A stretch of 64,000 bases of DNA, taken from a phage. The stretch lies in the sequence record PQ478073.1; one strand, written 5' to 3'. The first letter of the stretch is position 1. The number at the start of each line of letters is the position of its first letter. Both the position numbers and the translations under genes were made by a program. Positions 1,208 to 62,426 of this stretch are shown here, piece by piece. The notes beneath the pieces were generated by a model. That model did no database searches and was not told the origin of the DNA. It saw only the letters and a list, made by a program, of their open reading frames with translations.

Positions 1208-1237
1208 TTGAGACAAGCATCATTTTTGAGATATAAT
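1208..1237 (+). promoter_or_regulatory. sigma70-like promoter TTGAGA-N18-TATAAT
   Basis: TTGAGA 1208-1213, TATAAT 1232-1237, upstream of clamp gene. Confidence 0.5.
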
Positions 1238-4674: not shown

Positions 4675-4817
4675 GAAAATCTCCTTGTCAAATTTTGTGC
4701 AGGTATATCCTGCTTAAAGTTATTTATCAAAAAATATCACTAGCATTTAAATTTACTGAGATATTTAATGAATTTCTATGATATTATTTATCAAATCTGG
4801 GAAAGTGATTCAAGATG

Positions 4818-4826
4818 TGCTATAAT
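4818..4826 (+). promoter_or_regulatory. extended -10 promoter TGcTATAAT
   Basis: Member of recurring TGTGCTATAAT family; about 65 nt upstream of RNase H ATG. Confidence 0.5.
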
Positions 4827-4835
4827 TATCAATGA

Positions 4836-10093
<5,258 letters not shown>

Positions 10094-10123
10094 TTAAAAA
10101 ATATGGGACAGTATAAAAACCTG

Positions 10124-10132
10124 TGCTATAAT
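10124..10132 (+). promoter_or_regulatory. extended -10 promoter TGcTATAAT (gp32 leader)
   Basis: TGTGCTATAAT family; TTGACA at 10081-10086 further upstream. Confidence 0.5.
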
Positions 10133-10219
10133 GTAAAACGTTGAAGGAACAATGAAGTTTCTGAAACATTGAAGCCAATTAACAAATAACAAAGAAACCC
10201 AAAATCAAGGAAGATATAT

Positions 10220-11272
10220 ATGAAATCTCTAGCTGAAATTCGTGCACACCTAAAAGCAGAACAAGAAAAAGCAGAAGCTCAAAAGAATGGTACATTTACT
10301 GGCGAGCGTAAAGCTGATTCGTTCTTAGCTTTCTGGAACGTACCTTATAACGAACCACTAAACCTACGTTTTCTACCAGATGCAGATGAGTCTAACCCAT
10401 TCTTCTGGCGTGAACGTGACATGATTAACCTAACTTTCAATGGTGTAGTCGGTATGCACACTGATAAAGTTACCGTTCAAGTACCTTGTAACGAAATGTG
10501 GGTTCCTAAATCCTGTCCGGTTCTGAAAGAAGTACGTCAATGGTTCCAAAGTGCGAATGAAACAGGGAACGAAGAACTAAAAGCAATGGCTGGTCGTTAC
10601 TGGAAGAAGAAAACCTATCTAATGCAATGTTTTATTGCTCCTGATAGCGTTGCAGTAAAAGACGACATTGCACCAGAAAATCCAATTCGTCGTATTCTGG
10701 CTAACAAAGATATCTTTGATAAAGTTAAATCCATCCTGCTAAACCCAGGCATCAAAGAGTCTCCAACTCACTACGTTCAAGGTCGTGATTTTGGTATTGT
10801 TAAAACTAAGAATGGTGGTGGTTATAATAGCTACGACATGTCTCAATTCTCCATGTCTGAGCGTCCACTAAACGAAGAAGAACTAGCAGCAATTGAAAAA
10901 TATGGCCTATACAATCTAAATGATTTTATGCCAAAACAACCAACTCCAGAAGAGTTGAAAGCAATTGAAGAAATGTTCGAAGCATCAGTAAATGGTGAAG
11001 CATATGATCCAGCACGTTGGGCATTTGCATATCGTCCAGCAGGTGTACCAAAACCTAACTCTGGAACTGTTACTGAATCAAAACCAACTCCTGCTCCAGT
11101 ACAACAAGAGTCAGCACCTGCACCAGTAGCACCTACTGCTCCAGTTACACCAGCCCCACAAGCTGCTCCAGTAACTCCAGTCGCTACCCCAGCAGCAACC
11201 ACTCCTGAAGCACCAAAAGAACAACTATCTGCATCTGCACTAGTTGCTCGTTTGAAACAACAAGGTAAGTAA
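10220..11272 (+). CDS. 32: single-stranded DNA-binding protein (T4 gp32-like) with Pro/Ala/Thr-rich C-terminal tail
   Basis: LRFLPDADESNPFF resembles gp32 core (recalled); Cys cluster; AAGGA RBS; long structured leader. Confidence 0.7.
   Translation: MKSLAEIRAHLKAEQEKAEAQKNGTFTGERKADSFLAFWNVPYNEPLNLRFLPDADESNPFFWRERDMINLTFNGVVGMHTDKVTVQVPCNEMWVPKSCPVLKEVRQWFQSANETGNEELKAMAGRYWKKKTYLMQCFIAPDSVAVKDDIAPENPIRRILANKDIFDKVKSILLNPGIKESPTHYVQGRDFGIVKTKNGGGYNSYDMSQFSMSERPLNEEELAAIEKYGLYNLNDFMPKQPTPEELKAIEEMFEASVNGEAYDPARWAFAYRPAGVPKPNSGTVTESKPTPAPVQQESAPAPVAPTAPVTPAPQAAPVTPVATPAATTPEAPKEQLSASALVARLKQQGK
11090..11220 (+). repeat. imperfect short tandem repeats encoding PAPV/TPAP low-complexity tail of SSB
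   Basis: Reiterated gctccagta / cctgcaccagta units. Confidence 0.6.
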
Positions 11273-13802: not shown

Positions 13803-15287
13803 ATGAAAACTTGTAAGTTAACCTTATTGGATGAGGTGAATTGTAAATTTGAGGGACTTGATCCCTCAATTAGACAAAAGATGATTCGTGCAACTGAATA
13901 TGTGTTACCATATGCAAAGTTCACACCAGCAGGACGTATTGGACGTTGGGATGGTAAAGTTCAGTTTATGAATTTAGGCGGGACAACTTATTATCATATG
14001 TTAGATAAGTTATTGCCTATTCTTGATGAAGCTAAGATTGACATTGAATTAGTAGATCATAGGGTAGATTATGGATTTAAATTTGACCCCATTGATGAAG
14101 ATATTTTTAGTGATGTTGTATTCGGTGCAGGACACCACATGGAAGGTAAATCCATAAAACTACGTGAACATCAAGTTAATGCGGTTAATGCATGTTTGGC
14201 TAATCCACACGGACTGCTATTGGCAGCGACTGGTGCAGGTAAAACTCTCATTACTGCTGCATTGTCAAAGAAAGTGCAAGAGTATGGACGTTCTGTTATA
14301 ATAGTACCAAGTACTGACTTAGTACAACAAACATATGATGACTACATTATGTGTGGGTTGGATACTGGCATGTTCTATGGTTCACAAAAAGATTTTGGTC
14401 ACCAACATACTATTACGACTTGGCAATCATTTAACTCTCTATGGAAGAAAACCAAGAAAGGTGAAATTGAATTAACTGAACAAGACGTGAATGATTTTAT
14501 CGATGGAGTAGTTTGTGTTATCGTTGATGAGTGTCAAGGTGCAGGCGGTGACGCATTAGTTCAAGTACTTTCTAAAGTTATGAATAACGTACCATTACGT
14601 TGGGGTCTTACTGGAACAATTCCTAAAGATCCGGTAGTTGCCGCGAAAATCAAATGTAATGTTGGTGATGTTATATTTAAAATAACTGCAAAGGAATTAC
14701 AAGATAAACAAATACTAAGTACATGTAATGTGAATTGCATCAAACTAAAAAGTAGTATGAAGTTTGCATCATATGCTGAAGAGTTGAAATACTTAGTAAC
14801 TGACAGAGATAGGATGGCATATGTAGCGTCATTGATATCTGCGTTATCTGAATCAGGAAACACTTTAGTTTTAGTAGATAGACTTGAAGCAGGTGAGTTG
14901 CTATGTGAATTTTTAGGCATTCCCAAATCAGAATTCGTTCGTGGAGAAACTAAAAAGAAAGATCGAGAATCATCTTATGGTGAAATTCGTTGGGCTGATA
15001 ATAAAATACTTATTGCGACATACGGCGTTGCCAGTACTGGTATTAGTATTTCAAGGTTATATAATGTAGTATTGATTGAGCCAGGAAAAAGTTTTGTAAG
15101 AACTATACAGTCAATTGGACGTGGATTACGCCGAGCAGAAGATAAAGACCACGTAGAAATATATGATATTAGTGGTTCTAATAAGTATAGTGCTAAGCAT
15201 TTACGAGAACGTTTAGCTTACTATAAGGAAGCACAATATCCTCATAGTATAATAGATGTTAAAGATTGGGAAAACACAGCGGGATAA
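13803..15287 (+). CDS. uvsW: UvsW-like SF2 DNA helicase
   Basis: Walker A ATGAGKT, DECQ box, helicase C-terminal motifs; position after uvsX/uvsY. Confidence 0.8.
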   Translation: MKTCKLTLLDEVNCKFEGLDPSIRQKMIRATEYVLPYAKFTPAGRIGRWDGKVQFMNLGGTTYYHMLDKLLPILDEAKIDIELVDHRVDYGFKFDPIDEDIFSDVVFGAGHHMEGKSIKLREHQVNAVNACLANPHGLLLAATGAGKTLITAALSKKVQEYGRSVIIVPSTDLVQQTYDDYIMCGLDTGMFYGSQKDFGHQHTITTWQSFNSLWKKTKKGEIELTEQDVNDFIDGVVCVIVDECQGAGGDALVQVLSKVMNNVPLRWGLTGTIPKDPVVAAKIKCNVGDVIFKITAKELQDKQILSTCNVNCIKLKSSMKFASYAEELKYLVTDRDRMAYVASLISALSESGNTLVLVDRLEAGELLCEFLGIPKSEFVRGETKKKDRESSYGEIRWADNKILIATYGVASTGISISRLYNVVLIEPGKSFVRTIQSIGRGLRRAEDKDHVEIYDISGSNKYSAKHLRERLAYYKEAQYPHSIIDVKDWENTAG

Positions 15288-15300
15288 ACCCGCTGTTTGT
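15276..15300 (+). terminator. hairpin ACAGCGGG-ataaa-CCCGCTGT overlapping uvsW stop
   Basis: 8 bp stem; short T-tract; immediately followed by a -10 box. Confidence 0.5.
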
Positions 15301-15308
15301 GATATAAT
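15300..15308 (+). promoter_or_regulatory. extended -10 promoter TGaTATAAT
   Basis: Followed by perfect palindrome GTCATATGAC at 15311-15320. Confidence 0.45.
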
Positions 15309-15342: not shown

Positions 15343-15771
15343 ATGGAATTGAGATCTAGTATTGCTTTTATTTGTGACCAAGAAACTTTAGAAGTTATGG
15401 ATGTATTGTTGAACGATGATGGTATTATGGATGACATGGTATCTTCTCTTGACTATATACCTGAGCTAGAAACGGATGATACTAACGTATGGAGATGTAA
15501 TATTGATAGTGATTCTTGGATTAATATCTATGAATTACAGACACGAATTGATTCTAAAGTAGAATCATTGAAATATGATATCATCTATGCAAGTACTGAC
15601 ACGAAAACTTTTATTGATGTAGTAAGTCTAAGTGGTAATTTTGATTCATATCTGGATACTGATGTAGATAAAATTCAAGAGATGTGTGAAACTTATGGAC
15701 TTGAATTTTATGGCGTAGAAGACCAAGATGATGAAGAATATTATGATGACGAAGAAGATTCGCAGTACTAA
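15343..15771 (+). CDS. acidic hypothetical protein (142 aa)
   Basis: Asp/Glu-rich; no motif. Confidence 0.5.
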   Translation: MELRSSIAFICDQETLEVMDVLLNDDGIMDDMVSSLDYIPELETDDTNVWRCNIDSDSWINIYELQTRIDSKVESLKYDIIYASTDTKTFIDVVSLSGNFDSYLDTDVDKIQEMCETYGLEFYGVEDQDDEEYYDDEEDSQY

Positions 15772-19158: not shown

Positions 19159-20136
19159 ATGGCTCATCACGGCGTGTTTATGTACCCTTATAATCAGGAA
19201 GTATCATTGGGCAATTTTAATATGCCATATAGCAATGAAAAACTAACTATATATAGAGGGGCAAATAATAATTTATCTTTTACTGTTCACAACGCTGATG
19301 GAAAATATACTTTATTGAAAGATAATGAATATCTTACATTTATGATTTTTGATGCAAGAAATAATACTAAACTATTTGATGTTGTATTAGAAAAACAAGA
19401 ACCCAGTTGGTTATCAGAAAGTGGACAAGCAAGACAAACATTAGGAAATAAAAAGAAAGTATATTATGGATGTATTGTTCCAGCAGGAGTTATTCAAGAT
19501 ACCAGTCCTGGTTCAAAATATAGATGGAGCATTACTAAAGTAACAATGGATGGTTCACTTATAGAACCAACACAATATCTATACACAGGGATGAACTTTG
19601 AGGCATCAGCAGAGCTAATAATTTCAGACCAAGCAGCACCTGTATTTGTCCCCAGTACTGAAATATCAGTTAATAAAAATCCAGCATGGACAACTATAAA
19701 GCGTTTATATCATGAACCAATTGGAAATGGTATGATTGGTGAATATGATATTCTCGCATCAACTCCACTACCAGCACAAATGCAGTTTGGATTAGTAGAT
19801 GGATTAAGTAGTATTGCAATCTATTTTGATAAATTTATTGGTAGAATACAGCTACAAGGGTGCTTGTGTAACAACGTACCTAATGATAATGAAAACTATA
19901 AATGGTTTATTATTAAATTAGATGGAAAGGATTATATTGAAAATGGAATTGATTCAGAAGGTTTTCCAAAAGAACTTGACGGAATACAAGCATTTAATTT
20001 TAAAGGAAATTATATGTGGTTACGTTTGGTGGTTGCTATTCATCCCAAAATTGTTCCAGTACCATATGACTATGCTGCTGTCCGAAAAGTGTATGACCCT
20101 TTCCTAACAGTACCTAAAATTTTGATACGTAGATGA
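19159..20136 (+). CDS. hypothetical protein (325 aa), possibly late/structural
   Basis: GGAAGGA RBS before ATG 19159; track ORF starts at upstream TTG. Confidence 0.5.
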   Translation: MAHHGVFMYPYNQEVSLGNFNMPYSNEKLTIYRGANNNLSFTVHNADGKYTLLKDNEYLTFMIFDARNNTKLFDVVLEKQEPSWLSESGQARQTLGNKKKVYYGCIVPAGVIQDTSPGSKYRWSITKVTMDGSLIEPTQYLYTGMNFEASAELIISDQAAPVFVPSTEISVNKNPAWTTIKRLYHEPIGNGMIGEYDILASTPLPAQMQFGLVDGLSSIAIYFDKFIGRIQLQGCLCNNVPNDNENYKWFIIKLDGKDYIENGIDSEGFPKELDGIQAFNFKGNYMWLRLVVAIHPKIVPVPYDYAAVRKVYDPFLTVPKILIRR

Positions 20137-20153
20137 GACAAAACTAGAAGGTG

Positions 20154-20162
20154 TGCTATAAT
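20154..20162 (+). promoter_or_regulatory. extended -10 promoter TGcTATAAT
   Basis: TGTGCTATAAT family, 30 nt upstream of primase ATG. Confidence 0.5.
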
Positions 20163-20191: not shown

Positions 20192-21247
20192 ATGAACGCT
20201 GTACAAAACATAATGGCACAAATTATGAATGATCCAGTACCTGCGATTGGTACATGGTCACAACACAACTGTCCAGCTTGTGTGTTCAGAGGACATTCAA
20301 GGCCGGATACAAAGCACCGTGGTAATCATATGTTCAATGCAGATGGTTCCGTTTCATATAACTGCTTTAACTGTAGTTTAAAAACTGGTTGGCAACCAGG
20401 AAAATATATGAGCAAAGATATGGAGTCTTTGCTCATTTCTTTTGGTGCACAAGATAAAGAAATAGAATTAGTTAAGTTTTATATTAAAGAAATGGTTGAC
20501 AGCGGTGATTTTGCTGCACAAGAAACTGTTGCATCAAAATTGTATGACCGAGTAACAGTACGTGATTTGCCATCAAATGCAAAAACATTTTGGGAATGGG
20601 CTTCTTTACCTGAAGATAAAATTCCACAAGAATTTATAAGTGTTTTGCATAATGTCAATGAAAGAAACCCATATCTGTTAGACTTAGAATTATATTGGTC
20701 ACCTAATAAAGAACATAAAATGTATGACAGATTTATTATTCCATATTTCATGAATGGTAAAATTATTGGTTATACTGCACGACATAAATTAAAAGATCCT
20801 GGAAGTACATACAGGTTCATAAATCAAGTAAGTACTAATATACTATATAACTATGATTTATTAAAAGATGAACGAATAAAAACAATTTTAGTATGTGAGG
20901 GTCCGTTAGACGCAGCATTAATGGGTGGTGTATCTGCTAATAACTTTAAATTATCAAACGTACAGATTGATGTATTAAAAGATGCACAGCAAAAAGGTAA
21001 AAAAATAGTTATTGTTCCAGATAGAGATAAAGATGGATTAATAACTATAGACCAAGCACTTGAAAATGGATTCAGTGTTTCCTTCCCAGACTTTGGTGCT
21101 GTAAGAGAAGGTAGTACAATACGTCATATCAAAGACTTTGAAGAAGCTTGTGCACGATTTGGTAGGTTATTTTGTTTACAATTAATACATGATAGTATAG
21201 TAGATGAGCCATTTTATATTAAAGCTCAAACGGATAAATGGATGTAA
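20192..21247 (+). CDS. 61: DNA primase (T4 gp61-like; zinc-binding plus TOPRIM)
   Basis: CPAC...CFNC zinc ribbon; TOPRIM VCEGPLD; AAGGA RBS. Confidence 0.85.
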   Translation: MNAVQNIMAQIMNDPVPAIGTWSQHNCPACVFRGHSRPDTKHRGNHMFNADGSVSYNCFNCSLKTGWQPGKYMSKDMESLLISFGAQDKEIELVKFYIKEMVDSGDFAAQETVASKLYDRVTVRDLPSNAKTFWEWASLPEDKIPQEFISVLHNVNERNPYLLDLELYWSPNKEHKMYDRFIIPYFMNGKIIGYTARHKLKDPGSTYRFINQVSTNILYNYDLLKDERIKTILVCEGPLDAALMGGVSANNFKLSNVQIDVLKDAQQKGKKIVIVPDRDKDGLITIDQALENGFSVSFPDFGAVREGSTIRHIKDFEEACARFGRLFCLQLIHDSIVDEPFYIKAQTDKWM

Positions 21248-26195: not shown

Positions 26196-26531
26196 ATGAG
26201 ATTTCGTGATCTTACTGAAGAGGCTCCTGGTAAAGATATACGCAATATGATTACTACTATTGCGTTGTCTTTAGTGTCCACGGGTCGAGAAGAAGTAAAT
26301 GTTCAATCTTTGATTTCTGAAATTAAAAAGAGAACCAACATCGATGTTCCATACAATGTAATGATGGACATTTTGAATTCCCTTCCTTTTGTACAGGATG
26401 CTAATTCTGATGTTGTAACTTTTGCAGGAAATTCAGCAGAAGGTTCAGAAGAAGTCGAGCAAGATTCTGAAGAGCAAGTTGAAGATTGGGCCACAAAAGC
26501 TGCTGTGACAGCAAATAAACAAAAAAACTGA
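26196..26531 (+). CDS. hypothetical protein (111 aa)
   Basis: AAGGA RBS. Confidence 0.5.
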   Translation: MRFRDLTEEAPGKDIRNMITTIALSLVSTGREEVNVQSLISEIKKRTNIDVPYNVMMDILNSLPFVQDANSDVVTFAGNSAEGSEEVEQDSEEQVEDWATKAAVTANKQKN

Positions 26532-26570
26532 GACAAATTAAAATATAATGCTATAATTAGGAGTACACGG

Positions 26571-27290
26571 ATGTACACACCACCAATTGTTAGCAGATAT
26601 ACATATGTTGGTTACAATAGAATTGAAGGCGGCCCAGAAGGTCGCCTTTATTCAACTCCAACAGGTAATCTGCCGTCAGTAACAACAATTCTAAGTGCGA
26701 CCTCGAATGACGAAGGTTTAAAGAAATGGAGAGAATTTGTTGGTGAAGAAAAGGCTAATGAGATTACATTAGAAGCATGTACAGTTGGTACTTTTATGCA
26801 TGAGAACTTGGAATTTAGATTGGAAGGAAAGCCAGACCATGAAGGCGGTATGCCAATTCGAGTTCTTGCACGTAGAATGGCTGACAAAATTCAGCAAGAA
26901 GCATGGCCTAGAATTAATGAAGTATGGGGACAGGAAGTCCCATTGTACTATGAAGGTTTATGGGCCGGAACAACTGATTTAGTAGGTGTTCATGATGGAA
27001 TCCCAACCATTATGGATTATAAAAATTCCCGTAAAGTTAAGAAGTGGGGACAAATTGAAAATTATCGTATGCAAATTGCAGCATATGCATTAGCCCATAA
27101 TCAAATGTTTGGTACTAATATAGAACGTGGTGTGATTTTCATCTGTGTAAGAAAAGATCCTAACAATCTACAATATCAAGAGTTTGTCATAGAAGGACAA
27201 GACTTCAAAGATGCAGTCAATATGTGGATTGAACGTGTAGAACAATACTATATTTTACGTGGAGAAATTGAATCAAATGGAGCAGCATAA
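26571..27290 (+). CDS. PD-(D/E)xK nuclease (RecB/lambda-exonuclease-like fold)
   Basis: GTTDLVGV ... IMDYKNSRK ... YRMQIAAYALA (D...D.K plus QxxxY). Confidence 0.6.
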   Translation: MYTPPIVSRYTYVGYNRIEGGPEGRLYSTPTGNLPSVTTILSATSNDEGLKKWREFVGEEKANEITLEACTVGTFMHENLEFRLEGKPDHEGGMPIRVLARRMADKIQQEAWPRINEVWGQEVPLYYEGLWAGTTDLVGVHDGIPTIMDYKNSRKVKKWGQIENYRMQIAAYALAHNQMFGTNIERGVIFICVRKDPNNLQYQEFVIEGQDFKDAVNMWIERVEQYYILRGEIESNGAA

Positions 27291-32052: not shown

Positions 32053-35091
<3,039 letters not shown>

Positions 35092-35176: not shown

Positions 35177-36479
<1,303 letters not shown>

Positions 36480-38523: not shown

Positions 38524-38718
38524 ATGACTGACAAAACATTTTATGATCGTATTATTGAAGACAAGGGAGTTTTTGATAAGGTAGTTTATGACCTAGAACT
38601 TATGATCAAAGACGCACCGAACCCCCGTGTGCGAACCCAAGCAGAATTTGCAAAAACTTATCTTGTTCAAGTTCAAGCAATCTGTGAAGCAATTAAAAAA
38701 CACAATGATAGTGCTTGA
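38524..38718 (+). CDS. hypothetical protein (64 aa)
   Basis: GGAG RBS. Confidence 0.45.
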   Translation: MTDKTFYDRIIEDKGVFDKVVYDLELMIKDAPNPRVRTQAEFAKTYLVQVQAICEAIKKHNDSA

Positions 38719-38743
38719 CAGAACTAATGTTCTATCCTATAAT
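38715..38743 (+). promoter_or_regulatory. sigma70 consensus promoter TTGACA-N17-TATAAT
   Basis: Spacer contains palindrome AGAAC-taat-GTTCT. Confidence 0.6.
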
Positions 38744-42028: not shown

Positions 42029-42819
42029 TGCCAAGTAAGAGTAAAAGTCAGGCTAAATTCTTCGCAGCCGCCGCACACAATCCAGTATTTGCAAAGAAAG
42101 CTGGAATTTCACAAAGTGCTGCTAAAGAATGGAATGCCGCTGATGAAAAGGAAGGAAATCTTAAAAAAAGTTCTAAACTTCCTAATAAAGTAAAAGAAGC
42201 AAGTATGCGTAGTTTAGTCGATATTGTACAAGATGCAGAATTAGCTGATACAGACGACAGAACTTGTGATATAATGGATTCATGTGAAGACGACAAAGAT
42301 AAGTTGGATGAAATGCCACAACGTTTCGATAGTTTTCAAGGTCAAGACCGAGACGAGTTTGTCGATAAAACTGCCGAAATGACAGGTAAGCACAACATGG
42401 TTAAGTTCGCAGAACATAAAGACTATGATGTATATATGAACAAAAACGGTACTGGATTTATCGCTTACGATAAGTCTGGTAAACAGCTTGCTATAGTTAG
42501 TGGGCATTTATCCAATGATGCAGTACTTGGTGTTCAAAACGTTTTTGAAATTGCCGCAACTGCTTCTAAAACTGGAACTAAAGGTATAATTTATAATATC
42601 TTTATGGATATGATATCACATGGTATTAAAGTTCTGAGTGATAGTCTGCATACTGATGATGCGATTAAATTCTGGACCCGTTTAATTGGTTCCCATCAAG
42701 TTTATATTGTTGGTGGCGGTGAAGTACTTGCAAAGGCGAGTCCAGATAAGGTTCATAAGTACTGGAGTGATGATGAATCAAGTCCAAGTGCCGAACTTCA
42801 ACTTATGTTAGTAAAATAA
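42028..42819 (+). CDS. hypothetical protein, N-terminal DUF3008-like segment
   Basis: SKSKSQAKFFAAAAHNPVFAKKAGISQSAAKEW; TAATG overlap. Confidence 0.5.
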
Positions 42820-42823
42820 TAAT

Positions 42824-42857
42824 ATATCGGGACAAATCGTTCCGATATTTTTTTTTG
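42824..42857 (+). terminator. rho-independent terminator
   Basis: ATATCGG-loop-CCGATAT then T9. Confidence 0.75.
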
Positions 42858-42884
42858 AGACAAACAAAACATTGGTGATACAAT
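42855..42884 (+). promoter_or_regulatory. promoter TTGAGA-N18-TGaTACAAT
   Basis: Upstream of topoisomerase large-subunit gene. Confidence 0.5.
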
Positions 42885-42918: not shown

Positions 42919-44883
42919 ATGGCTAAGAAAGAAAGTGCTGTTCTACAGGAACATGATGTTCAACGACTAAATGATTATCAACATGCTCGTTTGCGTACCG
43001 AGATGTATCTTGGTTCTCGTTCAGTGCATGAAAGTCAAGTACTGATTTTTGGCGAATCAGGTTATGAGGTTAAGAACGTAGAATGGGTTCCTGCAATTCT
43101 TACTGCTACACGTGAAATTATTGATAACAGCTTAGATGAATTTAAAAAAGCTGGAACCAAAGAACCTGTTTTGAAAGTTGATTTCAATGAAGAAGAACTA
43201 TCATTTGAAATTAGTGACAATGGACGTGGTATTCCAATTGATTATGTTCCAGAGTATCAGAAAAACTTGTGTACTATGGTAATGACTGAAACAAAAACAG
43301 GCCGTAACTTTGACGATTCAAAACGTGATGAAACGATTGGTCAGAATGGTTTAGGTGGTTCTGTTGCAATGATTGTCAGTTCTAAGGCAGAGTTAGAAAT
43401 TCATCGCCAAGGTCGTCCGTATAAAACACAAAGTAGTAATGATGGTTATGATGGGTTTTATAAGTTCAATCAGAAGTTTGAGGAAGGAACTATTATGTTC
43501 CCTGAGCTTCATGTACACGAACCTACTATTAGAAAGGTACAAACCGATAAAACTGGAACAACAATTCGTTTTACTTTGAGTAAAGAAGTTTTTCCAAACA
43601 GAAAACTACCAACCGAATTACTTTATAGTATTCTTAAAGAAATGGCAGCAGCTAACCCAACTTATAAAATCTTTCTGAACGGGAAACGTATTGCTATTAA
43701 AGGAAACACTGAAAAAGCACTCTTCAATGCATCTAAATTAATGCAGTTGAATGTTAAAGATGATTCATTCAATTTTAACAGTACTTTTTATATTGTTCCT
43801 AATGCAGTAGCTGGCATGAACACAAATTTCCATATGCATGGGTTGGTTAACAATGCTCCTGCATTTGATGGTGGTACACATCTTGATACATTCAAGAAAT
43901 TCTTCTCACTCGGTGTAGGAACTGCACTAGAGAAAGAATCTAAGAAACGTAGGATGAAACCTAATCGTTCTGATATTGAAGAAGGTTTGTTGATTTATAA
44001 TGTCACAACTATGAAAGCACCTTCATTCAACTCACAGATTAAATCTAAACTAACTAATGAAAACGTAATCCGTCCAATTCAACAAGCTATGAATACCGAA
44101 TGGTTTGATGAATTAGTTAAGAAGAACAAAGAATGGGTTGATGAAATCTTCGAACGTTGTGCTGCCCGTACAAATAAGAAAGATGCAGAAGAAGATCGTC
44201 GCCTAGCAAAGAAACTTCTAAAAGGTAAAGTTGCAAAACTATTGGATAGTACTGGAACAGACCGTTCACAGTGTATTCTATTGATTGCAGAAGGTGACTC
44301 TGCAATTTCCAACATGGCTAGTGCTCGTATACCAAGTATTCATGGTATTCTACCATTGCGTGGGAAAATTATGAACGTCAGTGGTACTGAGAAAACCAAA
44401 GAATTAATGGATTCAATGGCTTTACATGATATAATGGCTAGTATCAACTTAGTTCCAGGTGTCAAAGCAGAACGTTCTGAACTAAACTATGGTAAGCTTT
44501 ACATCTGTGCTGATGAAGATGAAGATGGGAAGAACATTGGTGCTCTAGTGTGTAACTTCTTATTTAAATTCTGGCCTGAATTGTTTCAAGACCCAGAAAA
44601 TCCATTTGTGTATGTATTCAAAACACCATTTATCATTCTTGAGAAAGGTAAAGAATCAAAATACTACTATGGTCATAATGTGCATGAATATAACCCAGAT
44701 GATTGGAAAGGCTGGAAAGCAACGCGTGCAAAAGGTTTAGGAACTTTAGAAAAAGCAAACTTCCGTGATGCATTCACTAATAGTGTTGCAGTAGCGATCA
44801 CCGATGATGGCCGTCTTGGTGAAACTCTTGATTTGATTTTCAACAAGAAACGTGCAGATGATCGTAAGAACTGGATGGAATAA
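42919..44883 (+). CDS. 39: DNA topoisomerase II large subunit (GyrB-like ATPase plus TOPRIM; T4 gp39/gp60 equivalent, unsplit)
   Basis: GHKL ATPase region, TOPRIM (LLIAEGDSA ... CADEDEDG). Confidence 0.9.
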   Translation: MAKKESAVLQEHDVQRLNDYQHARLRTEMYLGSRSVHESQVLIFGESGYEVKNVEWVPAILTATREIIDNSLDEFKKAGTKEPVLKVDFNEEELSFEISDNGRGIPIDYVPEYQKNLCTMVMTETKTGRNFDDSKRDETIGQNGLGGSVAMIVSSKAELEIHRQGRPYKTQSSNDGYDGFYKFNQKFEEGTIMFPELHVHEPTIRKVQTDKTGTTIRFTLSKEVFPNRKLPTELLYSILKEMAAANPTYKIFLNGKRIAIKGNTEKALFNASKLMQLNVKDDSFNFNSTFYIVPNAVAGMNTNFHMHGLVNNAPAFDGGTHLDTFKKFFSLGVGTALEKESKKRRMKPNRSDIEEGLLIYNVTTMKAPSFNSQIKSKLTNENVIRPIQQAMNTEWFDELVKKNKEWVDEIFERCAARTNKKDAEEDRRLAKKLLKGKVAKLLDSTGTDRSQCILLIAEGDSAISNMASARIPSIHGILPLRGKIMNVSGTEKTKELMDSMALHDIMASINLVPGVKAERSELNYGKLYICADEDEDGKNIGALVCNFLFKFWPELFQDPENPFVYVFKTPFIILEKGKESKYYYGHNVHEYNPDDWKGWKATRAKGLGTLEKANFRDAFTNSVAVAITDDGRLGETLDLIFNKKRADDRKNWME

Positions 44884-49140: not shown

Positions 49141-49618
49141 TGTGAAATGTAATCTTAACGCAGTTGTTTATGCAATCAATTGCGGTGCAGATATCCAGTA
49201 CTTACAATTGCAGGAAATTGATGAACCTGAAAGGTTGAAATTCAATGATAACTGTAAAAAATTTGGCTTAGAACAACGTATGCTGGATTATACAATTGAG
49301 CATGATAAAAATCATGAACTGTGGCGATATGATCCAGTATACGACAATATAAATCTGCGTGACTTTTTCTTACAAAAATGCACATCCGATGAAGCACGAA
49401 AACGTGTTGAGTATGAACTTGATTTATATGAATATTATAATATGACAAAGCTACTAAGATGTATGATATGGCTTGTTGATTATATGGAAGAAAATGAGAT
49501 CTTTTGGGGTCTAGGTCGTGGAAGCTCTGTTGCATCATACTGTTTGTTTTTGATTGGACTACATATGGTAGATTCATTGAAGTACGAACTTGATGTTAAC
49601 GAATTTTTGAAATGGTAG
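49100..49618 (+). CDS. DnaE-like protein, N-terminal module of a split mini-DnaE (no PHP domain)
   Basis: IFWGLGRGSSVASYCLFLIGLHMVDSLKYELDVNEFL aligns to DnaE [34 protein letters not shown]; ORF ends just before where the catalytic DxD would follow. Confidence 0.5.
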   Translation: MKVQGNRFISPNGDVKCNLNAVVYAINCGADIQYLQLQEIDEPERLKFNDNCKKFGLEQRMLDYTIEHDKNHELWRYDPVYDNINLRDFFLQKCTSDEARKRVEYELDLYEYYNMTKLLRCMIWLVDYMEENEIFWGLGRGSSVASYCLFLIGLHMVDSLKYELDVNEFLKW

Positions 49619-49627
49619 AAAAACATG

Positions 49628-49636
49628 TGATATAAT
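49628..49636 (+). promoter_or_regulatory. extended -10 promoter TGaTATAAT, left arm of 10-bp inverted repeat
   Basis: TGTGATATAA at 49627-49636 and TTATATCACA at 49650-49659. Confidence 0.45.
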
Positions 49637-54471: not shown

Positions 54472-54500
54472 TTGACATGTGTAGTCGAAGTATGTACAAT
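54472..54500 (+). promoter_or_regulatory. sigma70 promoter TTGACA-N17-TACAAT
   Basis: Near-consensus hexamers, 40 nt upstream of ATG 54542. Confidence 0.65.
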
Positions 54501-55679: not shown

Positions 55680-55708
55680 TTGACTATCATACGTGCTGCC
55701 CGTATAAT
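55680..55708 (+). promoter_or_regulatory. sigma70 promoter TTGACT-N17-TATAAT with flanking inverted repeat GTGCTGC/GCAGCAC
   Basis: IR arms at 55693-55699 and 55723-55729 bracket the -10. Confidence 0.65.
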
Positions 55709-56896: not shown

Positions 56897-56925
56897 TTGA
56901 CATATGAGTGCGTTTTTAATATAAT
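56897..56925 (+). promoter_or_regulatory. sigma70 consensus promoter TTGACA-N17-TATAAT embedded in terminator hairpin
   Basis: -10 lies in the loop of the 56907-56943 stem. Confidence 0.65.
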
Positions 56926-61845: not shown

Positions 61846-62007
61846 ATGAAAAAAACTTGGAAAATATTCACAATACCTGCTATAATGTTGTTATTGGCAC
61901 TTTTCACACCGCAGAGTCATGTATTGTCTCTTAACATTGTGGAAATAATTCTTCTTGTAATTCACTGTGTCGTGTGTTATAATTATGTAAAAGGTGATAA
62001 AGAATGA
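61846..62007 (+). CDS. small membrane protein (53 aa)
   Basis: AAGGA RBS before ATG 61846; track ORF began at TTG 61702. Confidence 0.35.
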   Translation: MKKTWKIFTIPAIMLLLALFTPQSHVLSLNIVEIILLVIHCVVCYNYVKGDKE

Positions 62008-62426
62008 AGTTCTTTAAAATTCGAATTGGTGTAAGTTCTGGTTTATCTCATTGGGTATTTTATGATTTACCTGATAGTTATACTATTGATGATGTAATTG
62101 ATTTATATACCGAAGATCAACAATGGGTGTTAGATACCGAAACACATAGAATTGATTGTCAAGAGATTAGTGAAGAAGATTACAAACACGGAAAGCAAGC
62201 CATGAAGTATTTTGAAACAAATATCAAAATGCTGACTGAAAACGTATTTCCAGTAAAAGAATGGGCAATTTTACTTGCTAATCCTAAAAAACCTGTTAGA
62301 ATTGGTTATCCAAATTTTCATATGGTGTATCGTATGAATGATAAGCGAGAGCTTAACTATCAATACGATTACGATTCATCTAAGTTTGGAGTTCTTAAAC
62401 AATTTTTAAAGGCTTATCCAGTATGA
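62004..62426 (+). CDS. hypothetical protein (140 aa)
   Basis: ATGA overlap. Confidence 0.5.
   Translation: MKFFKIRIGVSSGLSHWVFYDLPDSYTIDDVIDLYTEDQQWVLDTETHRIDCQEISEEDYKHGKQAMKYFETNIKMLTENVFPVKEWAILLANPKKPVRIGYPNFHMVYRMNDKRELNYQYDYDSSKFGVLKQFLKAYPV

Follow-up and report, generated by a model that had tools for sequence, protein, structure and literature searches.

We found that TGTGCTATAAT, an extended −10 sequence repeated along a stretch of jumbo-phage DNA, forms the downstream part of a predicted bipartite promoter preceding DNA-replication genes. The predicted class that it defines heads operons for DNA replication, recombination, and nucleotide metabolism, as well as the gene for a gp55-like late sigma factor. 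From the comparative evidence laid out below, we lean towards a middle promoter class that would be read by the host core RNA polymerase carrying a phage-encoded RpoD-like sigma factor. An earlier reading of the letters alone, made without database searches (hereafter, the sequence-only reading), had proposed a phage-specific class with an extended −10 before replication genes and mostly without a good −35. The class itself held up; the lack of an upstream element did not, as the sites carry a box of their own, TGRGACAA. That interpretation was also incomplete in leaving unconsidered the phage's own sigma70-family factor, whose gene lies outside the analyzed stretch.

The repeated −10 sequence belongs to a two-part motif

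The analyzed DNA (sequence record PQ478073.1, 64,000 nucleotides; hereafter, the window) belongs, by sequence identity, to Asteriusvirus, the PBECO4/121Q/JP4-like members of the Rak2-like group, which are jumbo myoviruses of about 350 kb infecting E. coli. Over the 8 kb at the site of the finding, identity is 100% with Escherichia phage JP4 and 99.8% with PBECO4 and the phages closest to it. The window corresponds approximately to PBECO4 225.5–289.5 kb, in reverse complement, and contains a cluster of replication and recombination genes. We took genome-wide counts from the complete PBECO4 genome. No Rfam family was found anywhere in the window, and the G17 GenBank record annotates terminators but not promoters.

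The repeats noticed at the outset were readily recovered. Copies of TGTGCTATAAT start at 4816, 10122, 20152, and 32244, all on the + strand, where 0.11 would be expected by chance, and none of 100 shuffles reached four copies. The variants were likewise present: TGTGATATAAT at 15298 and 49626, TGATATAAT at 10049, and ATGCTATAAT at 26548. These boxes had been described as mostly lacking a good −35. Inspection of the upstream sequence revealed the opposite, with G[GA][GA]A[CTA]A located exactly 16 nt 5′ of TATAAT at all exact and intergenic variant sites except 49626. The spacing between the −10 and the following ORF start also varied more widely than the 20–90 nt first reported, from 13 to 163 nt. 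Four further members of the class had been overlooked, with TATAAT or TACAAT starting at 1232, 36164, 42879, and 61881. The predicted class promoters of the window, with their matrix scores, are as follows.

1209..1237, + strand: class promoter TGAGACAA-N11-TGAGATATAAT, 64 nt 5′ of ORF 1302-2033, whose counterpart is annotated as a sliding clamp in phage fEgEco12; 24.8 bits; orthologous site in CBB, Porf_265
4798..4826, + strand: class promoter TGGGAAAG-N10-TGTGCTATAAT, before an RNase H-like 5′-3′ exonuclease gene; 17.1 bits; orthologous sites in CBB, K64-1, 7t3, fEgEco12, Hallingskeid, Yen9-04, and XbC2
10029..10057, + strand: distal promoter of the tandem pair 5′ of the SSB (gp32-like) gene, CGGGACAA...AGTGATATAAT; 25.7 bits
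10104..10132, + strand: proximal member of the same pair, TGGGACAG...TGTGCTATAAT, with the start codon at 10220 lying 87 nt downstream; 27.0 bits; the pair is kept in CBB, 7t3, fEgEco12, Hallingskeid, Yen9-04, XbC2, and the Vibrio phage
15280..15308, + strand: class promoter CGGGATAA...TGTGATATAAT, 34 nt 5′ of ORF 15343-15771; 22.8 bits; orthologues in CBB (Porf_282), K64-1, 7t3, and fEgEco12
20134..20162, + strand: class promoter TGAGACAA...TGTGCTATAAT, 29 nt 5′ of the DNA primase gene (20192-21247); 13.9 bits; orthologues in CBB (Porf_290), K64-1, 7t3, and XbC2
26529..26557, + strand: class promoter TGAGACAA...AATGCTATAAT, 13 nt 5′ of an exonuclease/Cas4-like gene (26571-27290); 26.6 bits; orthologues in CBB (Porf_300), 7t3, and XbC2
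32226..32254, + strand: class promoter TGGAACAA...TGTGCTATAAT, 3′ of the ribonucleotide reductase genes; 27.7 bits, the top match
36141..36169, + strand: candidate internal promoter CAGGACAA...GGTGATATAAT, within a small RNase H gene and with a Dda-like helicase gene 337 nt downstream; 24.5 bits; less certain because it is intragenic
42856..42884, + strand: class promoter TGAGACAA...GGTGATACAAT, 34 nt 5′ of the topoisomerase II large-subunit gene (42919-44883); 22.4 bits
61858..61886, + strand: weaker class member TGGAAAAT...CCTGCTATAAT, 117 nt 5′ of ORF 62004-62426; 16.9 bits; uncertain because it overlaps a small ORF

Two of these sites have additional local features. The box at 15280..15308 falls within a terminator-like hairpin, GCGGGATAAACCCGC, and at 32226..32254 the annotated ATG of the next ORF lies within the −10 hexamer.

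The copy of TGTGATATAAT at 49626 was considered as a class member and rejected. The site at 49607..49636 (+) combines it with a TTGAAA −35 at a spacing of N18 and fits the class poorly (9.4 bits); it is a predicted sigma70-like promoter that has the extended −10 in common with the class. One-mismatch copies at 42265 (intragenic) and 61973 have no upstream box and poor matrix scores.

Aligning 26 sites of the genome yielded the consensus T−35 G−34 R−33 G−32 A−31 C−30 A−29 A−28, N11, G−16 T−15 G−14 (A/C)−13 TATAAT G−6, with an A/T-rich tract at −43 to −40. Each position from −34 to −29 carries 1.2–1.75 bits, and G−14 carries 2.3 bits. TATAAT is essentially invariant, G−14 is present in 26/26 sites, and T−15 in 24/26. 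The association of the two halves was evident in the window as a whole: GRRAYA-N16-TAYAAT had nine matches, all on the + strand, compared with 0.42 expected. There were 19 copies of TGnTATAAT on the coding strand, nine of them intergenic, and seven of these nine have the box. The two without it are the copies at 49626 and 61973 (TGn starting at 49628 and 61975), and the intragenic copies are box-free except for 61878 and a near-match at 36161.

For a hold-out test, a matrix was built solely from the 16 sites lying outside the window and then applied to the window. It recovered the 11 class sites as its best-scoring matches, and above 12 bits it identified 13 positions on the + strand and none on the − strand, with 0.74 expected. 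The search over the whole genome that had been suggested as a check also bore the motif out: the all-site matrix gave 38 matches above 14 bits in PBECO4, confined to one strand, compared with 1.9 in random genomes. A generic sigma70 promoter scan of 9.5–21 kb was uninformative (57 sites versus 54 expected). Only the specific motif, and not the generic sigma70 pattern, is significant. In this generic scan the class sites score 10/12, with GACA at 16-nt spacing.

The class is separate from the canonical promoters

The sequence-only reading had described a second class of promoters with full −35 and −10 elements, and all four of its examples are present.

38715..38743, + strand: canonical TTGACA-N17-TATAAT promoter, before an IF3-like gene
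54472..54500, + strand: canonical TTGACA-N17-TACAAT promoter
55680..55708, + strand: canonical TTGACT-N17-TATAAT promoter
56897..56925, + strand: canonical TTGACA-N17-TATAAT promoter

Examining the complete PBECO4 genome revealed that the two types are distributed differently. TTGAC[AT]-N16-18-TA[TA]AAT occurs 42 times, 40 of them on the coding strand, and 27 of these canonical promoters lie at 125–225 kb, a region of short, mostly hypothetical genes. The 25 strict matches to the box class lie at 0–100 and 225–325 kb, with none at 100–150 kb. Outside the window, the class precedes the DNA polymerase operon, a thymidylate synthase/DprA operon, Nudix/glutaredoxin genes, and an ATP-dependent protease gene. 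One site (L009:4615-4642 in PBECO4) lies directly 5′ of the gp55-like gene for a "sigma factor for late transcription". The predicted late-promoter motif, TATAAATA, precedes structural genes. The box class is thus separate from the canonical TTGACA/TATAAT promoters.

The two elements are nevertheless closely related in form. Since many promoters of the early region are TTGACA-N16-TATAAT, a frequent arrangement there, TTGACA and GRGACA share the register −34 to −29, and the box differs from the phage's TTGACA mainly at the first two hexamer bases. TGTGnTATAAT also occurs behind TTGAC boxes elsewhere in the genome, and we therefore regard the TGRGACAA box as the discriminating half and the extended −10 as the shared half.

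This distribution also bears on the timing suggested earlier. The link to replication genes held, whereas the term "early" became doubtful: the class is absent from the small-gene region at 100–150 kb and stands before replication, recombination, nucleotide-metabolism, and late-sigma genes, a middle or delayed-early pattern. Judged by gene content, the class would be better termed middle or delayed-early than early.

Conservation in related phages and an earlier prediction

We compared the class sites with the genomes of CBB, XbC2, Yen9-04, K64-1, 7t3, Hallingskeid, and fEgEco12. All seven have the class at orthologous positions, with diverged spacers, so that conservation at orthologous gene starts extends over at least six phage genera. 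The direct comparison covered six orthologous gene starts in the replication region. The gp55-like gene is preceded by a class site in CBB as well (Porf_244).

A class of this kind had already been predicted in Pectobacterium phage CBB, as "Promoter 1" or a "divergent RpoD-like promoter" found by MEME (Buttimer et al. 2017, PMC5259590, Table S6). It lies mostly before DNA-synthesis genes and the gp55-like gene, was seen in Cronobacter phage GAP32 too, and CBB encodes an RpoD-like sigma in its presumed early region (PMC5259590). The sequences in that table, e.g., TGGAACGACCTAAAAAAATGTGCTATAAT, have exactly the architecture of the window class: a 7-nt box, 16 nt, and TATAAT preceded by (A/G)TGn. 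The gene starts are also the same (the clamp-like, RNase H, primase, exonuclease, and gp55-like genes and the tandem pair of the SSB gene), and the genome studied here has, like CBB, both an RpoD-like sigma in the early region and a gp55-like sigma. By sequence, then, the class matches the Promoter 1 predicted for CBB and GAP32, and its kind is already known as a prediction.

The two differ in detail. The box is TGAAACG/TGGAATG in CBB and TG(G/A)GACA(A) here, and position −13 is mostly G in CBB and A/C here. The frame T-G-R-x-A-C of Promoter 1 is found here too, with G at −32 where CBB has A. As the position and frame are the same and this base differs, we consider the Asteriusvirus class a lineage variant of Promoter 1. 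The CBB paper draws no link between the box and residues of the sigma factor.

The literature searched contained no analysis of promoters in the Asteriusvirus lineage, nor any report of transcription start sites, RNA-seq, or in vitro transcription for phages of this group. The RaK2 genome paper discusses neither promoters nor sigma; the Sharanji, fEgEco12, and phAPEC6 papers mention sigma but not promoters; and the PA5oct paper reports TTGAC/TATAATA promoters only. The promoters in the N1M2 paper are phiKZ-like and irrelevant to the class.

Vibrio phage 2.275.O was also compared. It keeps AATGTTATAAT at the orthologous positions, with no clear box, and its sigma is much more sigma70-like, with the WW pair kept and without the insertion described below. 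This phage neither helps nor contradicts an explanation through the phage sigma.

A phage sigma factor co-varies with the promoter bases

The RpoD-like sigma of PBECO4, gp356, has 321 aa and is encoded at 195.6–196.6 kb, outside the window. It matches the Pfam profiles Sigma70_r2, r3, and r4 and the NCBIfam model RpoD_Cterm (5.9e-25); it is closest to RpoD/RpoS C-terminal models, yet falls below their family cut-offs. Every relative examined has a counterpart, with identities of 60% in fEgEco12, 43% in K64-1, and 35% in CBB; the protein evolves fast. The sigma gene lies behind a predicted host-type early promoter, TTGACA-N17-TATAAT at L006:48124-48152, 1.5 kb 5′ of the gene and in the same gene string. 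The phAPEC6 virion proteome paper does not mention the sigma among virion proteins.

We aligned gp356 with residues 375-613 of E. coli sigma70, whose sequence was verified against PDB chains. In sigma70, the C:G pair at −31 is recognized by R584, position −33 (the third of the hexamer) by E585 and R588, −12 by Q437 and T440, and −14 by H455 and E458 (Hook-Barnard and Hinton, PMC2613000). Relative to sigma70, an insertion of 8 residues extends the turn of the helix-turn-helix in region 4.2 of the phage sigmas, which also replace E585, R586, R588, Q589, W433, W434, Q437, T440, H455, and E458. The equivalent of R584 is R, or K/H in some lineages, and the promoter C is likewise kept. In gp356, the −12 readers are substituted as Q437M and T440Y, the −14 readers as H455Y and E458V, and W433/W434 are lost. 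These losses count against gp356 as the reader, since T−12 and G−14 are invariant in the class; recognition by gp356, if any, could not proceed through the sigma70 contacts.

The differences among the phage sigmas follow those among the promoters. Phages whose region-4.2 helix reads [R/H][S/T][S/T][I/L]HR (PBECO4, fEgEco12, 7t3, and Hallingskeid) have the box TG(G/A)GA(C/T)A; those with KATLSR (CBB, XbC2, and Yen9-04) have TG(A/G)AA(C/T)G; and K64-1, with RGTLHY, has (C)TGAA(C/T)(G/A). The base at −32 is G in 33/37 sites paired with the first helix type and A in 25/25 sites paired with KATLSR or RGTLHY. A similar relation holds in the other element: G at −13 is found at 12/19 sites in the clade with region 3.0 E454/H455-equivalents and at 0/43 sites elsewhere, where these residues are R/K-Y or R-H (Fisher p = 2e-8, a value that ignores shared ancestry). 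The G-type box occurs in two separate clades of the sigma tree, so the box changed at least twice where the helix changed too. About two independent events in evolution underlie the co-variation seen among the eight phages. Scanning IMG/VR for further sigma lineages returned 12 loci, mostly of known isolates and with the same three helix types. These loci added no new independent lineages to the co-variation test, as they are flanked by early regions in which nearly all promoters are of the TTGAC type.

The DNA-reading regions of host sigma70 are assumed to be near-identical in these enterobacteria. Because the promoter changes in both elements track the phage sigma, and host sigma70 is presumably near invariant, the co-variation argues for the phage sigma as the reader of the class. 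Another co-evolving DNA-binding protein would yield an identical pattern of co-variation.

A proposed cascade and its alternatives

We infer from these patterns that transcription would initiate at the class sites, in a middle phase, and under the phage sigma. In the proposed cascade, host sigma70 holoenzyme would first act in the early region of small genes, at its canonical TTGACA/TATAAT promoters, including the one 5′ of the gp356 operon. Host core polymerase with gp356 would then use the TGRGACAA/GTGMTATAAT promoters as the middle class, and one of these promoters would express the gp55-like sigma, which would in turn serve the TATAAATA late promoters. Parsimony speaks for this scheme, as three motif classes stand against three sigmas, one from the host and two from the phage.

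It may well be, although we advance this more tentatively, that the RpoD-like sigmas of Rak2-like jumbo phages and the class promoters make up pairs of sigma and promoter that co-evolve in nature. Despite the 8-residue insertion and the replacement of most sigma70 DNA-contact residues, such a sigma would still read a sigma70-like −10, and a difference of two or three bases would let it tell TGRGACA (or TGAAAC or TGAAC, depending on lineage) from the TTGACA of the host. Through such pairs, the phage would have a private channel for its middle genes on the host core polymerase, and the sigma of "group 2" jumbo phages, an orphan so far, would be matched with its promoters.

Host sigma70 holoenzyme might instead read the sites alone, as strong extended −10 promoters that are early or constitutive, with the box serving as a tolerated 4-of-6 variant of TTGACA or as a tuner of strength and the phage sigma serving something else. 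We consider this unlikely, though several features are in its favor. TATAAT is perfect, TG at −15/−14 is nearly invariant, and the sites reach 10/12 in the generic scan with this TG, so the host holoenzyme would probably make use of them as well, and may well do so alone or early on. Little contribution from a −35 is required at extended −10 promoters (PMC2613000), and gp356 is without the sigma70 residues that read −12 and −14. GACA is in register with the canonical promoters, and the A/T-rich tract lies upstream at −43 to −40; the neighboring bases T−35, G−34, R−33, and G−32, however, are not those of sigma70 promoters, are conserved as strongly as the −10, and persist at orthologous sites of different genera despite diverging spacers. 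Because the same genome uses plain TTGACA elsewhere, with another distribution, the difference between the box and TTGACA appears to be maintained rather than neutral. Host sigma70 alone also fits poorly with −32 and −13 changing with the phage sigma and not with the host, given the near-identity assumed for host sigma70, and it would leave a conserved phage sigma without a promoter motif.

Middle promoters of phage T4 combine a sigma70-type −10, often with TGn, and a phage-specific box near −30, and they stand before replication genes. The class resembles them in architecture, which raises the alternative of T4-type sigma appropriation: sigma70 would read TGnTATAAT and a separate phage activator would read TGRGACAA, whether or not an anti-sigma also remodels region 4. 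AsiA occurs in some group 2 jumbo phages, and CBB encodes an HTH protein two genes 5′ of its sigma. Nevertheless, we judge appropriation to be improbable. The class box is not the MotA box (TGCTT), the PBECO4 annotation contains no AsiA or MotA, and a tblastn search of the whole PBECO4 genome with T4 AsiA and MotA, a weak test, gave nothing significant (best E of 0.8). In Pfam searches of the genes flanking the sigma gene (eight upstream and two downstream), nothing was significant and neither an HTH nor an anti-sigma family turned up; PHROGs likewise assigned no such function to the eight genes 5′ of it. An activator of the box would also not explain the co-variation of −13 with region 3.0 of the phage sigma. 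That the motif is not a promoter at all, but recurs by chance or has another role, such as a site for recombination, packaging, or a nuclease, is highly improbable: the motif statistics exclude chance, and the strict sense-strand orientation directly 5′ of ORFs, the two-hexamer geometry with fixed 16-nt spacing and perfect −10, and the conservation across six or more genera at the starts of orthologous genes all argue against it.

According to a 2026 review, the RpoD-like sigmas of jumbo phages "likely" use phage-specific promoters. Jumbo phages without their own RNA polymerase encode such a conserved sigma, and the window provides about a dozen well-defined candidate targets, so that what this sigma reads becomes directly testable. 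Reading by the phage sigma predicts that G versus A at −32 pairs with H versus S at the R588-equivalent residue and that G at −13 pairs with the E454/H455-equivalents. If these predictions hold, they would explain the timing of replication-gene expression in these phages and yield orthogonal sigma/promoter pairs, functional in E. coli, that differ little. Should the sites be used by host sigma70 alone, they would be an ordinary set of strong extended −10 promoters.

Relation to known phage systems

As in the middle promoters of T4, a phage element replaces the −35 before replication genes (gene 32, gene 45, and rnh-type functions), and the class would form the middle step of an early-middle-late cascade that ends in a gp55-type late sigma and TATAAATA promoters. 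Unlike T4, the box is TGRGACAA rather than the MotA box (a/t)3TGCTT(t/c)A, it lies at −35 to −28 in the −35 register rather than centered at −30, and the phage encodes a complete sigma70-family factor, of which T4 has none.

The predicted role of gp356 resembles that of gp28 of Bacillus phage SPO1, a phage sigma70-family protein made from host-type early promoters that redirects the host core, after which a further phage sigma drives the late genes. Middle promoters of SPO1 differ from the host consensus at both hexamers (AGGAGA/TTTnTTT). Here, in contrast, the −10 is that of the host, and the differences are confined to two or three bases of the −35 and to positions −16 and −13.

A −10 of the TGnTATAAT type is found as well in Thermus phage P23-45, at the extended −10 middle/late promoters of its gp39/gp76 switch, and in sigma70 extended −10 promoters in general. 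The class has the TG at −15/−14 and the good −10 that mark extended −10 promoters, and unlike both of these groups it has a conserved element at the −35 position.

Leader of the SSB gene and start codon at the 32249 promoter

The gene encoding the gp32-like single-stranded DNA-binding protein (SSB) is preceded by two class promoters in tandem, 75 nt apart (window 10029-10222), and this pair is kept in the relatives examined. The predicted transcript from the distal promoter carries a stable hairpin at its 5' end (window 10064-10086). Its 159-nt leader folds more strongly than shuffled versions (z = -3.6), and the 3' end of this leader is A-rich and unstructured. By analogy, the SSB leader here appears reminiscent of T4 gene 32 autoregulation.

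At the class promoter at 32249, the ATG at window 32253 falls within the TATAAT itself. The ORF beginning there is 264 nt long, the same length as PBECO4 gp469. A second, in-frame ATG lies 30 nt further 3' and is preceded by GGAGAAGAAG (window 32249-32285); this is the more plausible start codon.

Overlapping terminators and promoters

Immediately 3' of the helicase gene, we observed a terminator-like hairpin, GCGGGATAAACCCGC (window 15279-15296). The TGRGACAA box of the class promoter at 15303 sits within this hairpin. Signals for termination and re-initiation overlap at this point, and fEgEco12 has a comparable layout, CGGGATAATCCCG. A separate cassette, GGGTTGACTTCGGTCAGCCCTTTTTGCTATAAT, combines terminator and promoter: its hairpin has a UUCG loop, the -35 TTGAC lies within the stem, and the T-run continues into TGnTATAAT. 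It occurs in four copies in PBECO4 and is kept in 7t3-like and Yen9-04 phages.

Promoter-related motifs (L005, L006 and L009, PBECO4 stretches outside the window; L031 and L033, loci of relatives)
L006 24090-24119, 25880-25909, 26804-26833, 37093-37122; L031 about 11329; L033 about 11522: GGGTTGACTTCGGTCAGCCCTTTTTGCTATAAT cassette
L005 34221-42471; L006 3050, 28277, 38867, 43181 (record about 134-142, 153, 178, 189, 193 kb): early-region subclass
Window 2034, 13305, 46388, + strand: TATAAATA late motif
Window 34842, - strand: TATAAATA late motif
L009 4646-4653: TATAAATA late motif
L006 19107-19117 (PBECO4 about 169.1 kb), - strand: TGTGTTATAAT

Other promoter classes and the phage sigma factor

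Early-region promoters of PBECO4, outside the window, make up a tight subclass of their own, TTGACA-N9-AGTACTG-TATAAT, with a 16-nt spacer and more than 10 copies. The AGTACTG immediately 5' of the -10 is almost invariant, which is unusual for plain sigma70 promoters.

We also aligned gp356, the RpoD-like sigma of PBECO4 and candidate reader of the class promoters, with its orthologues. Every enterobacterial Rak2-like sigma has lost W433/W434 (E. coli sigma70 numbering) and carries an insertion, consensus D-x-K-G-K-x-V, in the region-4.2 helix-turn-helix, between its two helices; the sigma of a related Vibrio phage retains WW and lacks the insertion.

The T4-type late promoter motif, TATAAATA, was found in the window and at L009. 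One copy lies about 45 nt upstream of the virion protein gene at window 46434, and one is placed back-to-back with the class promoter that precedes the gene for the gp55-like sigma. Another, at 2034, lies downstream of ORF 1302-2033, which has a class promoter upstream; this ORF is "hypothetical" in PBECO4, and its fEgEco12 orthologue is annotated as a sliding clamp protein. Finally, a pair of RCC1-repeat genes on the + strand flanks a TGTGTTATAAT that lacks the box and is oriented antisense to both; this is either a chance match or an antisense promoter.
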